From IMG/VR virus record IMGVR_UViG_3300012314_000001: a DNA stretch of 64,000 nucleotides. One strand, written 5' to 3'. The position numbers and the translations under genes are program-made. Positions 36,474 to 63,149 of the stretch are shown in pieces. Numbering within the stretch: the first letter of the stretch is position 1; every line of letters starts with the position of its first letter. The stretch comes from a virus. The notes under the pieces are model-generated. The model did not search any database and was not told where the DNA came from. It saw only the letters and a program-made list of their open reading frames with translations.

Positions 36474-38444
36474 TTAAACGTACATCCAGTGGTCACCCAT
36501 GAAGTTAGCGTCCGAGCCGAGAAAAACTTCACGGCCCGCAGCAGCATTAAGCCAGTCTGGTGGGGTGACCATGATTTCTTGGATTTCTTTTTCTGCCTCC
36601 GAGTCTACAACAAGCTCATCGTGAATAGCGAGAATGATGGCGTCATCGAGGCCTGCTTTGTGGATATTGTTGATTGTTTCCGACAGCATGGAGTAGGCGG
36701 TTCCTTGCACAATGTAGTTCATGGCGCGGTAGCCCACATACGGGTCGGTATCCCAGGGCCTGTTATTGTCGGGGAAGTTTTCTGGCACGGTCAAACCACG
36801 CCCGTCAACGGTGCGGATAAATCCTTGTTTGCCTGCGACGTTTTTAACCCGGTTGAGGAAATCAACGGTGGGCTGCATGGCGGCGTTGTACTGGTTTTTA
36901 ATGTTGGTGGCTTCATCTAGAGATACACCTAAGTTGGACGCCAACAGAGCCTTTCCTTGGCCGTACATATTCGCCAGCACCACTGTTTTTGCTTTTTTGC
37001 GGCCTGGGTGGTCTTTGGCTTCCTTTTCGCTAAGTTCTTGTGGGATAAGGCCCGCGATTTTAGCGGAAGGGATGTACAAGTCGCCGCCCTTATTAAAGTC
37101 AACAAGGTAGTCAAAATCGTGTGCCACGTTGGTAAGCACAACAGGCTCAATGGACGACCAGTCAATGGATGTCCAAGATCGTCCTGGATCGGCATGCAAA
37201 ATAGGTCGGGCACGATCCGGGAATTGCTGAAGCTCAGGATAGCGGTAAGACATGCGGCCTGTGGCGTGAGCTCCAAGTACTCCTACCTCGGGGTGGACTC
37301 TGCCGGTAACATTTGCCATGGCAATGATTTTGTCCAAGTAGGTCAGAATCTTGTCGTGTTCTTTAAGGTCGGTGGCGAGTTTGATAAGTGGGTGGCCGAG
37401 TTTTTTGGTTTCCTTTTTCGACGCGGACAAGAGTCCCGATGCGGTAATCGGCCAGTCGGAGGGCAAACGGTCGGTGTAGTGCAGGTAGTTGATTACTTCC
37501 TGGGTGATTTTACCTGGTGAGGAGTCTAGGCCGAGGTCTTCAAAGACGGACATTTTCTCGTCCTTTGATTTTTCAAACTCGGCGCGGAAAGAGTGCGCGT
37601 AGTCCAAGTCGGCGTAGATACCAATAGCGGATCGTCGCATCATAACGTGGTTGGTGGTTTGTTCGCGTTGGATAAGGCGACGGATCTGGTCAGCGGGGTT
37701 TCCTGTAAATCCGGCAGATGGTGCGCGGTTGGCAAAGTCGCGTTGTTGGTTGTACACAGCATTGTACAGGGGGCGCAAAAGCCTCAGTGTAGCAACAGTA
37801 TCGGCCATGGCACCTGCCCGGTAGACGGGGTCAATAACAGTGGAGTTGCGGAAACCCATATCCGCTTTGGTGTATTTTTCACCAGTCACCTCATCTACTG
37901 CGGTTTCGTACCCCATGACTGCAAACGAGTCAGCAATTTTGCTGTTAATTTCTGGGAAGTTACAGAACTGGGTGGACAAAGTATCGAGGTCTCGACCGCC
38001 TTTTTGGGCAGTATTGTACATGCGGGCAAGAACAAGGGTGTCCCAAATTTTATAAATGTGGTCAAGTTCCATCAAACGGTTCTGGTACAGGCCAGGAACG
38101 TCGTAGGGGGCGTTATGGAGGACGAGGATTCCTGCGGCGTCAATAAGCGTAATGATTGCTTCGCGCTGGCCGGGGTTTCTAGGGTCAAGGAAGACGTTGA
38201 TGGTGCGGTTGTTTTCGTCCCATGCGGCGGTCACACAGCGGATGAAGAATTTTTCCAGGCCTTTGGTTTCAATATCAATGGCAACGGTCAGACCTACGGG
38301 TGGGTCTTGTTCGATTTTGTGTGCCGCATCTTGGGCAATGTAGCAGTGTGCTTGGGTGGTGGGGTTGTAGTAGGTGTCGCTGTCTGCCCCGAATGTGGAG
38401 TGAGGGAGGGTGAGGGTTCTTTCGGGGATGGGGAGGTGCGGCAT
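36474..38444 (-). CDS. family A (Pol I-like) DNA polymerase with N-terminal 3'-5' proofreading exonuclease, phage/plasmid type
   Basis: Exonuclease motifs AIDIETKGL and LVLHNAPYDVPGL. Polymerase motif B RKKAKTVVLANMYGQG and motif C ILAIHDELVVD. Confidence 0.8.
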   Translation of the reverse strand: MPHLPIPERTLTLPHSTFGADSDTYYNPTTQAHCYIAQDAAHKIEQDPPVGLTVAIDIETKGLEKFFIRCVTAAWDENNRTINVFLDPRNPGQREAIITLIDAAGILVLHNAPYDVPGLYQNRLMELDHIYKIWDTLVLARMYNTAQKGGRDLDTLSTQFCNFPEINSKIADSFAVMGYETAVDEVTGEKYTKADMGFRNSTVIDPVYRAGAMADTVATLRLLRPLYNAVYNQQRDFANRAPSAGFTGNPADQIRRLIQREQTTNHVMMRRSAIGIYADLDYAHSFRAEFEKSKDEKMSVFEDLGLDSSPGKITQEVINYLHYTDRLPSDWPITASGLLSASKKETKKLGHPLIKLATDLKEHDKILTYLDKIIAMANVTGRVHPEVGVLGAHATGRMSYRYPELQQFPDRARPILHADPGRSWTSIDWSSIEPVVLTNVAHDFDYLVDFNKGGDLYIPSAKIAGLIPQELSEKEAKDHPGRKKAKTVVLANMYGQGKALLASNLGVSLDEATNIKNQYNAAMQPTVDFLNRVKNVAGKQGFIRTVDGRGLTVPENFPDNNRPWDTDPYVGYRAMNYIVQGTAYSMLSETINNIHKAGLDDAIILAIHDELVVDSEAEKEIQEIMVTPPDWLNAAAGREVFLGSDANFMGDHWMYV

Positions 38445-38529
38445 GGTTTTTGTGCCCTCCTTGGGTTGGTTGTTGGTTTTTGTAATAGGGCTTTATTCTA
38501 GGGTGTGTGCGGCGGGTTTGGCAAATTGT

Positions 38530-62134: not shown

Positions 62135-63149
62135 TAGCACCACACTGACCCAGGCGCGCCGGGCGAAGAAGGATGAGTTTTATACGTCTTTTGATGATAT
62201 TGCGCGTGAGGTGGAGACGTATGTGGAGTGTGATCCGAAAGTGTTCTCGGGCCGCAGCGTATTGTGCCCGTGCGATGTTCCATCAGAGAGTGCGTTTGTG
62301 GAGTTTTTTGTCCAGAATTTTGACCGTTTGGGGCTAAAGCGTCTGGTTGCTACGTGTTTCCGTGAGAGTGGCCGTGGCGAGGTTTTTATTAAGGAGGCGG
62401 GCAGAGAGGACTATTCTGCTTTGTTGTGTGGCGATGGTGATTTTCGGAGTGAGGAGATAAGTGCTTTTCGTGATGAAACGGATTTCATTATTACTAACCC
62501 GCCGTTTTCGTTGTTCCGTGAGTTCGTGGCGTGGGCTCGTGCAGGACATGCGAAAGTATCTATTTTGGGTAATATGAACGCGTCGAGTTGTGCGGATATT
62601 TTCCCGCTCATCCACCGCGGCAACCTATGGTACGGGTCGTCTATTACAGGTGGCGATAGGGAGTTTCGTGTACCGGATGATTACCCGCTAACGGCCTCGG
62701 GGTCTCGTGTTGACGAAAATGGCACCAAGTTTGTGCGTGTTAAAGGGGTGCGGTGGTTTACTGATATTCAAAATGTGTATCGTCATAAGCCGCTAGAGTT
62801 GCGGACTATGGAGGAGAATCTGCAGAATAATAAGCAGGTCAAAGCTCATGCTTTTGCATACCAGGAATACGACAATTACCCGGCTATTGAGGTGCCGTAC
62901 ACGTCTGCCATTCCCCGAGACTATGAGGGTCTGATGGGGGTTCCTATTTCGTTTTTGGATAAGCATTGCCCGGAGCAGTTTAGGATTGTTGGTATCACTG
63001 ACTCTAGGAATAGTTCTGGTCTTAGAACTAAAAAGTACACGAAACAGGATCACCCGACACCGGGAAGTCTTAACAGTCGCGCCGCACTTGTTACTCCTGA
63101 TGGGGGCTACAAGTCGACGTATGTGCGTCTTCTTATCGAAAGGGTCTAG
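62121..63149 (+). CDS. N6-adenine DNA methyltransferase (Dam-like, motif IV NPPF)
   Basis: N-terminal KDEFYTSFDDI (Dam-family xEWxTP-like motif) and FIITNPPFS. Overlaps the ftsK-like stop by 14 nt. Confidence 0.5.
   Translation: MSRNNSTTLTQARRAKKDEFYTSFDDIAREVETYVECDPKVFSGRSVLCPCDVPSESAFVEFFVQNFDRLGLKRLVATCFRESGRGEVFIKEAGREDYSALLCGDGDFRSEEISAFRDETDFIITNPPFSLFREFVAWARAGHAKVSILGNMNASSCADIFPLIHRGNLWYGSSITGGDREFRVPDDYPLTASGSRVDENGTKFVRVKGVRWFTDIQNVYRHKPLELRTMEENLQNNKQVKAHAFAYQEYDNYPAIEVPYTSAIPRDYEGLMGVPISFLDKHCPEQFRIVGITDSRNSSGLRTKKYTKQDHPTPGSLNSRAALVTPDGGYKSTYVRLLIERV

Follow-up and report, generated by a model that had tools for sequence, protein, structure and literature searches.

Phage-type replication genes within a putative giant plasmid-like element carrying type VII secretion parts

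We analysed a 64,000-nucleotide stretch of DNA filed as the virus record IMGVR_UViG_3300012314_000001 of IMG/VR (referred to below as the window), and in particular the replication and recombination module located at 36474-63149. The module is real and of phage ancestry, but it lacks the compactness of a phage early region, and the surrounding element is not an ordinary phage. We lean, with modest confidence, towards the view that the window comes from the interior of a giant plasmid-like element that is extrachromosomal and equipped with phage-type replication genes. Both ingredients are of known kinds, namely the giant type VII secretion plasmids of Mycobacteriales and actinophage replication modules. 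What is new is the combination of the two, together with the host and habitat that it appears to have and the fact that reference collections lack the element.

Gene identities in the window were assigned by Pfam searches at curated cut-offs and by PHROGs profile searches. The original prediction, made from the sequence alone, had named a PolA-type polymerase, RusA, a DEDDh exonuclease, a YqaJ exonuclease, a WhiB-like regulator and an FtsK/SpoIIIE-like ATPase; all were in place with significant matches above the curated Pfam cut-offs, and PHROGs agreed. The family A DNA polymerase (PolA, 36474-38444, minus strand), with an N-terminal 3′-5′ exonuclease-like domain, matched DNA_pol_A (1.7e-38) and phrog_17 (5e-98), the latter over residues 52-654. 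Inspection of the translation by eye located DxE at about 56-60, NxxYD at about 112-117 and YxxxD at about 213-217, corresponding to exonuclease motifs I, II and III, and phrog_403 matched residues 66-161. Alignments to Pol I structures of the PDB reached only residues 259-619, and the exonuclease domain lies outside them. Judged from its motifs, PolA is a polymerase A palm and fingers joined to a DEDD-type exonuclease with predicted proofreading activity. A 207-amino-acid DUF2020 protein (35837-36460, minus; Pfam 1e-56) adjoins it.

The other genes of the module are distributed on both strands and mixed with secreted proteases, a lytic transglycosylase, an insertion sequence (IS) and type VII secretion accessory genes. 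On the minus strand are a helix-turn-helix regulator of the XRE type (40874-41362; HTH_3, phrog_1373) and the RusA Holliday junction resolvase (41604-42083; Pfam RusA 5e-10, 40 bits against a cut-off of 22.8; phrog_3055 and phrog_140). The remainder lie on the plus strand: the DEDDh exonuclease, a 3′-5′ enzyme of the RNase T/DnaQ-like kind (42170-42874; RNase_T 5e-14, 53 bits; phrog_192 2e-35), a second, recombination-type exonuclease of phage type (53241-54569; phrog_466 1e-14; 25.5% identical to gp30, ‘DNA exonuclease’, of Corynebacterium phage EmiRose), the YqaJ/RecE-like recombination exonuclease (56736-57932; YqaJ 2.5e-6, 28 bits against a cut-off of 22; phrog_434 6e-20) and the WhiB-like regulator of 198 amino acids (58042-58638; Whib 25.9 bits against a cut-off of 23.6; phrog_472). 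Between the two recombination exonucleases, at 54626-55654 (plus), a further protein combines a repetitive Q/G-rich N-terminus with a C-terminal domain matching phrog_870 (1e-6); its first 195 residues derive from degenerate 21-nt and 15-nt repeats (QNQGGFQ-type; internal repeats D4-D8). Because the gene lies between two exonuclease genes, its product could be a DNA-binding or annealing protein.

At the right end of the module, two small Dam methyltransferases had been proposed to flank the FtsK-like gene. The first is indeed a Dam-family N6-adenine methyltransferase of 180 amino acids (59507-60049, plus; Pfam Dam, PF05869, 8e-14; phrog_111) and the 14-nt overlap of the second with the ATPase gene also held, but the second is a 342-amino-acid adenine methyltransferase of the EcoRI type (62121-63149, plus; EcoRI_methylase 2e-91). 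The gene between them encodes a membrane-anchored, single-domain FtsK/SpoIIIE ATPase, resembling coupling proteins and TraB-like DNA translocases (60116-62134, plus; FtsK_SpoIIIE 2e-11), with weak DUF87 and TrwB Pfam matches besides. The second exonuclease, an EspG-like gene (55724-56635), an IS200/IS605 insertion and a tRNA-Asn gene come in addition to what the original prediction contained.

The phage affinity of the module was clear for individual genes. PolA shared 40-42% identity with the Pol I enzymes of siphophages infecting Gordonia and Corynebacterium, and a comparable PolA was found in one plasmid-labelled record only, at 33% identity. In EmiRose, in phi673/phi674 and in the Gordonia phages Morrissey and Mahdia, Pol I showed this same 40-42% identity and a Holliday junction resolvase was present, as in the element; EmiRose shares, besides the exonuclease mentioned above (25.5%), an SF2 helicase (41%) and NrdH (36%). 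PolA, the helicase, the exonucleases, RusA and NrdH were all closest to actinophages. The arrangement is another matter. In these phages the replication genes form one block of about 15 kb on one strand, beside the virion genes, in genomes of 37-45 kb, whereas in the element the homologues occupy both strands of a stretch of about 70 kb, mixed with envelope and secretion genes, with no virion gene seen. The earlier description as a classic actinophage early region is thus right as to the type of genes and wrong as to their layout, which is interleaved and not compact.

We then delimited the element by exact-protein look-ups, which placed the window on a 76,123-bp metagenome contig (ena:ERZ27289756 k141_4759). 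An identical PolA was found on contigs in 33 collection blocks, the longest being 266,405 bp; long contigs include ena:ERZ28663985 scaffold_24 (266 kb), ERZ28608440 scaffold_1 and JGI Ga0118136_100001 (157 kb), and neighbouring proteins were found on contigs of 226, 216, 187, 174, 169, 163 and 157 kb (ENA, Logan, JGI, NCBI). The 266 kb scaffold showed 92-96% DNA identity to the window, with indels and without the IS. Walking outwards from the window via cluster-member ids gave a contiguous composite of 143,950 bp, about 80 kb of it flanks, and at least about 120 kb of the 266 kb scaffold lie outside this reading. Other contigs run 36 kb and about 84 kb past an array of 15-bp repeats described below. 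The suspicion that the element exceeds 64 kb was therefore correct: it measures at least 266 kb and possibly 300-350 kb, the latter if the ends beyond the repeat array do not overlap the far end of the scaffold, as in the circular case. The GC content was 0.45-0.56 across all main-element loci sampled (about 51% in the window) and did not jump at the boundaries read.

Among the window open reading frames (ORFs), Pfam and PHROGs detected no capsid, portal, terminase or tail family, as originally predicted, the sole ‘tail’ or ‘tape measure’ matches running through NlpC/P60 and SLT domains. The same held for virion families over the roughly 144 kb read, for which Pfam and PHROGs were run on window and flank proteins and precomputed Pfam gene tables were consulted. 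Annotation of the flanks, proposed earlier as a check, revealed no structural gene, integrase or att-like boundary in the composite, and its gene tables contained no ribosomal or other housekeeping genes apart from a divergent GyrB/GyrA pair; the flanks read consist of further sequence of the same element. Near-identity DNA searches with 24.5 kb against GenBank phages and PLSDB returned tRNA-sized matches only. IMG/VR scans with PolA, EccE and the GyrA-like protein gave nothing close, and PolA had no close relative among the 185,579 species-representative genomes of GTDB. Thus the element has no close match in the plasmid, phage and species-representative genome collections searched.

A second group of genes pointed to plasmids. 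Plasmids of 200-340 kb from Rhodococcus, Mycolicibacterium and M. avium carry homologues of the FtsK-like ATPase at 35% identity (E 1e-56 to 4e-69), while phage FtsK-like homologues reached about 26% identity at most. On those plasmids the neighbours of the homologue are EspG, WXG100, PPE, EccE, MycP and EccD, or a trypsin-like protease. The EspG-like type VII secretion chaperone of the window (55724-56635, minus), which scored 22 bits with Pfam ESX-1_EspG, below the cut-off of 27, matched annotated EspG by tblastn on a Rhodococcus plasmid (9e-25) and on an M. chimaera plasmid (1e-14), and the EspG and FtsK homologues lie together there. Similarly, the SLT-type lytic transglycosylase (46240-46920, minus; Pfam SLT 1e-5) was 38% identical to a gene adjoining conjugal-transfer genes on the M. 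chimaera AH16 plasmid. A secreted trypsin-like serine protease with a lipoprotein-type signal (43949-44956, minus; Pfam Trypsin 7e-11) showed 30-31% identity to a gene beside the FtsK homologue in M. avium pS2b, where it is annotated as trypsin-like protease, and in Rhodococcus, where it is annotated as hypothetical. Outside the window, MycP was 45-48% identical to plasmid homologues, and EccE and NlpC/P60 proteins are also common to those plasmids.

The GyrB/GyrA pair had by far its best match on a plasmid. These highly divergent proteins (663 and 732 amino acids; L027:2526-6743, about 14-18 kb left of window position 1) showed 37-40% identity (E 1e-119 and 1e-143) to such a pair on the AH16 plasmid of M. 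intracellulare subsp. chimaera, and about 30% to everything else, the phage set included; among the reference plasmids the pair is common to the element and the AH16 plasmid only. We considered whether it marks the start of a host chromosome and rejected this, given the divergence of the proteins, the unchanged GC content and the continuation of element-type genes beyond.

For the broader comparison, the ESX-P reference plasmids were the linear plasmids of M. avium of the pS2b type (more than 300 kb), the AH16 plasmid NZ_CP012886.2 (437 kb), that of Rhodococcus sp. H-CA8f (NZ_CP023721.1, 301 kb) and pCBMA213_1 of Mycolicibacterium. They have in common with the element the size class, the FtsK/SpoIIIE ATPase, EspG, MycP, EccE, NlpC/P60, SLT and the trypsin-like protease, and also tRNA genes, many small ORFs, IS200/605 copies and the lack of a recognisable Rep. 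Of the ESX-P core genes, EccE and MycP were found, the sequence read showed no EccB, EccC or EccD, and two 240-amino-acid FtsK-like ATPases occur instead. An EspG-like chaperone gene and a WXG100 gene beside NlpC/P60 were found as in ESX-P plasmids, with no PE/PPE genes seen. Of type IV parts, the part read showed a homologue of FtsK-type coupling proteins and no VirB4, TcpC or relaxase. The element further differs from the ESX-P plasmids in that ParA/B and DnaB were unseen in the part read; conversely, PolA, RusA and the YqaJ exonuclease were absent from the 343 kb of the AH16 plasmid examined. Its GC content of about 51% and its many sortase-anchored proteins point to a host other than those of the ESX-P plasmids, and it is known from metagenomes only.

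The linear M. avium plasmids of more than 300 kb have been reported to carry a secretion system that is a hybrid between type VII and type IV, NlpC hydrolases and several helicases, to possess no relaxase and no recognisable Rep or oriV, and to be kept at about one copy per chromosome (PMC12803027). According to the same authors pS2b has no significant matches to actinophage proteins (PMC12803027), unlike the element. On the AH16 plasmid we observed a gap of about 27 locus tags without listed genes at about 228-232 kb of NZ_CP012886.2 (L034), probably a tRNA array, and genes for ThrRS, DHFR, DnaB and WhiA; thus phage-like cargo is not unusual on such megaplasmids.

Another known system bears on the ATPase. 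A single FtsK-like TraB ATPase can move double-stranded DNA between Streptomyces cells. The element resembles such TraB-type conjugation systems (pSVH1, pSAM2) in having a single membrane-anchored FtsK/SpoIIIE ATPase and no relaxase seen. The likeness is one of description: the closest homologues are the coupling-protein-like genes of Mycobacteriales plasmids, and no clt-like site or spread genes were identified.

The flanks continue the mixture seen in the window. To the right, a WXG100 gene adjoins that of a 363-amino-acid NlpC/P60 protein just beyond the window, and the stretch further encodes a GmrSD nuclease, a second methyltransferase-like protein of 870-920 amino acids, the two 240-amino-acid FtsK-like ATPases, an isochorismatase, the S8 mycosin (MycP), EccE and a 781-amino-acid NlpC/P60 protein. 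It also contains DsbA-like and NrdH-like proteins, Lsr2, more trypsin-like and M23 peptidases, cutinases, the SF2 helicase, a very acidic 727-amino-acid protein, an RpfB-like protein and an Ig-type adhesin of more than 1,300 amino acids. To the left are signal peptidase I, the GyrB/GyrA pair, a GT87 glycosyltransferase and arrays of small overlapping ORFs. In all, the element carries at least six LAxTG surface proteins, LCP, four cutinases, RpfB-like, GT87 and DsbA-like proteins, signal peptidase I and polymorphic IS200/605 copies.

We favour the plasmid-like reading because no virion genes occur in about 144 kb, because type VII parts, an FtsK-type coupling protein, sortase substrates, cell-wall biogenesis genes and polymorphic ISs do occur, because the best matches are to megaplasmids, and because the IMG/VR marker scans were negative even though the element is the largest contig (157 kb) of a JGI metagenome. 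Several observations weigh against it. The replication genes are closest to those of lytic siphophages, and such a PolA is almost absent from catalogued plasmids; several proteins match phage-only PHROGs families of unknown function; on the far side, small co-directional ORFs overlap in arrays such as are typically found in phage early regions. ParA/B, Rep, relaxase and VirB4 were all missing from the roughly 144 kb read. Also, in several assemblies the element ranks first among the contigs by size or by coverage (NODE_1 with coverage 159; scaffold_1; contig 100001), a status that fits an abundant phage as well as a plasmid. Finally, the part of the 266 kb scaffold beyond the composite, and the stretch past the repeat array, could hold virion genes.

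These same points nourish the strongest competing explanation, according to which the element is a jumbo phage or phage-plasmid exceeding 266 kb, with its virion genes in the unread part and with secretion and surface genes that remodel the host during a long carrier or lysogenic state. PolA, the helicase, the exonuclease, NrdH, RusA, the RecE-like exonuclease, WhiB and Lsr2 are typical actinophage genes, the window has four tRNA genes, and the part read shows no plasmid hallmark either. As for a phage-plasmid in particular, the roughly 144 kb covered so far showed neither a virion module nor ParA/B or Rep. Jumbo phages (above 200 kb) are like the element in size, tRNAs, a polymerase and a topoisomerase II of their own, many orphan genes and high abundance in assemblies. 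They are unlike it in that about 144 kb contain no virion family, in the type VII secretion and sortase-substrate genes, and in that the element is absent from the GenBank phage set. Furthermore, three IMG/VR marker scans were negative despite the 157 kb JGI contig, genes of plasmid or cell type are present (EccE, mycosin, EspG, the FtsK-type coupling protein and many for sortase substrates and cell-wall biosynthesis), and the IS copies are polymorphic. A published skin catalogue reportedly includes new jumbo phage clades from foot sites, and the element may be one of these. On balance we regard this explanation as possible but doubtful.

Integration in a bacterial chromosome, as an integrative and conjugative element (ICE), a giant genomic island or a decayed prophage, appears improbable. 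Chromosomal sequence could lie in the parts of the long contigs beyond the composite, some element proteins are also found in NCBI records, and many genes are of cell type (LCP, signal peptidase, GT87, Rpf, GyrA/B). Against this, about 144 kb yielded no integrase, att-like boundary or core gene, the GC content is uniform, the GyrB/GyrA proteins are too far from bacterial gyrases to be host copies, and neither PolA nor the TnpB of the IS has a close relative in the 185,579 species-representative genomes. Among the three classes offered by the original prediction (phage, phage-plasmid or ICE), the ICE is accordingly the least supported, lacking integrase and chromosomal flanks over about 144 kb, while phage and phage-plasmid are neither established nor eliminated. 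The evidence points most towards a fourth class, at which the prediction merely hinted: a giant plasmid-like element of conjugative type, related to the type VII secretion megaplasmids of Mycobacteriales. An ordinary temperate or lytic actinophage of 40-70 kb with structural genes just beyond the window, which the resemblance to 37-45 kb Corynebacterium and Gordonia phages might suggest, is ruled out in practice by the flanks: 10-40 kb read on either side contain no structural genes and the same sequence continues for more than 140 kb.

The host of the plasmid-like element would be an uncultivated or unsequenced member of the Mycobacteriales, most plausibly a skin Corynebacterium. A mycolate-type envelope, plausibly that of Corynebacterium, is indicated because the element encodes LAxTG signals, LCP, GT87, cutinases and Rpf, and the sample labels OHJU14, LARS22 and XIAO21 suggest human skin metagenomes. 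A diverged relative was found on L021 (ena:ERZ1029872 NODE_15, 52,627 bp; GC 0.45-0.49), with an EccE 51% identical and the same gene order around MycP/EccE, together with the large subunit of a class Ib ribonucleotide reductase and an AbiEii toxin. The element therefore belongs to a family and is not a single clone.

The plasmid-like element may have acquired its DNA-handling genes from actinophages or share common ancestry with them. The phage-type set would comprise, in the window, PolA, the DEDDh exonuclease, RusA, two recombination-type exonucleases, WhiB and two adenine methyltransferases and, beyond it, the SF2 helicase, the NrdH-like glutaredoxin, Lsr2 and the private GyrB/GyrA pair. 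By homology, the element would be copied and decatenated by PolA and its exonuclease domain together with the DEDDh exonuclease, the helicase and the private topoisomerase II; intermediates of recombination or replication would be processed and resolved by RusA and the pair of recombination exonucleases; the Dam and EcoRI-type methylases would mark element DNA, and WhiB, Lsr2 and the helix-turn-helix protein would act as regulators. The FtsK-like ATPase, the type VII parts and the SLT, NlpC/P60 and M23 hydrolases may, by analogy with plasmids, take DNA or protein across the envelope in cell-to-cell transfer, as such genes on ESX plasmids are thought to drive DNA transfer and remodelling of the cell surface. 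The element would be both extrachromosomal and conjugative. More speculatively, it could be a hybrid replicon of about 300 kb or more, common on human skin, that unites actinophage-derived replication with type VII/FtsK-type transfer, either a new Corynebacterium megaplasmid lineage or a conjugating, surface-repainting jumbo phage-plasmid; we put this forward as a tentative idea only.

If the element is plasmid-like, the giant type VII secretion plasmids extend from mycobacteria and rhodococci to an apparently abundant actinobacterium of human skin, the habitat being that suggested by the sample labels, and one of them runs on phage-type replication genes. Such replication would blur the line used by classifiers of the geNomad type or by size-based ‘jumbo phage’ calls. 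Because it carries adhesin-like surface proteins, cell-wall enzymes, secretion parts and defence genes, the element could shape colonisation, phage resistance and gene flow in its host.

A candidate replication origin, partition or centromere-like site is provided by the repeat array. A 2.1 kb non-coding stretch to the right of the window (L047:7869-10000), just upstream of the very acidic 727-amino-acid protein, includes ten perfect tandem copies of the 15-bp unit TTCCTTGTTCCGCGT (L047:9774-9925; also L038:~640-815). The minimum of the cumulative GC skew of the 144 kb composite falls at this 15-bp × 10 array. Many assemblies end exactly there, and a scan of JGI metagenomes returned only contigs breaking at this point.

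The module is interrupted, between the polymerase block and the helix-turn-helix and RusA genes, by the IS200/IS605 copy (39012-40642; Pfam OrfB_IS605, Cas12f1-like_TNB and Y1_Tnp), which consists of TnpB (39012-40139, minus) and a frame-broken Y1 TnpA (40094-40642, plus). The region 38959-40985 is missing from the 266 kb scaffold and IS200/605 copies occupy different sites on other contigs; the IS is therefore active, or was recently so, in the population. Other structural variation at the strain level was observed. A 286-amino-acid Band 7 gene of the scaffold (L001:20494-21493) replaces part of a 218-amino-acid paralogue of the window (27390-27979), whose own Band 7 gene is at 21499-22419. 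Of the two paralogous proteins of 870-920 amino acids (window 15173-17794, minus, and L019:6118-8892), the second is missing from the scaffold. Both have an NPPY adenine-methyltransferase motif and a weak DUF7149 N-terminus, and may be type IIG or BREX-like defence enzymes.

The envelope enzymes announced by the original prediction (NlpC/P60, LCP, SLT and LAxTG proteases) were recovered by Pfam and in the translations, the proteases being trypsin-like and one of them bearing a LASTG signal. Fic (30938-31636), NlpC/P60 (32232-32945) and LCP (33371-34972) form an envelope and toxin cluster on the plus strand (30938-34972; Pfam). The sortase-anchored protease (45038-46243, plus) was recognised by its TAGHCG and GDSG motifs, an acidic spacer and a C-terminal LASTG signal, membrane anchor and RKNR tail, the Pfam scan listing no match of its own. 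Three small helical proteins of 114, 200 and 165 amino acids (gene calls, 51695-53153, plus) are possibly type VII secretion substrates, the sole hint being a faint EspC match of the 165-amino-acid protein (E 0.028, below cut-off).

ARAGORN detected four tRNA genes in the window, and Rfam these four and nothing else. One is tRNA-Asn(GTT) (43813-43886, minus; Rfam 68 bits); the others form a tRNA-Leu/Gly/Thr cluster (3506-3774) followed, at 4291-9606, by three paralogous LAxTG-anchored surface proteins in tandem (together 3506-9606, plus). According to the translations, each of these proteins (564, 568 and 592 amino acids; repeat families D1-D3 and D6) has, besides a signal peptide and a conserved N-terminal domain, long (E/D)TPET repeats and a sortase signal of the form LATTG/LASTG, and more LAxTG proteins lie beyond the window. 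No dispersed intergenic repeat that might lead to further loci was found, and PDB sequence searches with two uncharacterised proteins of 452 and 707 amino acids gave no match. Finally, a subset of proteins (window 26658-28023 and 46986-47456; the GyrB-like protein of L027) is strikingly enriched in T, N, H, P and Q; their coding strand is rich in C and A, which gives a local GC skew of +0.41 at 26-28 kb, whereas most other proteins are rich in D, E, G and V.

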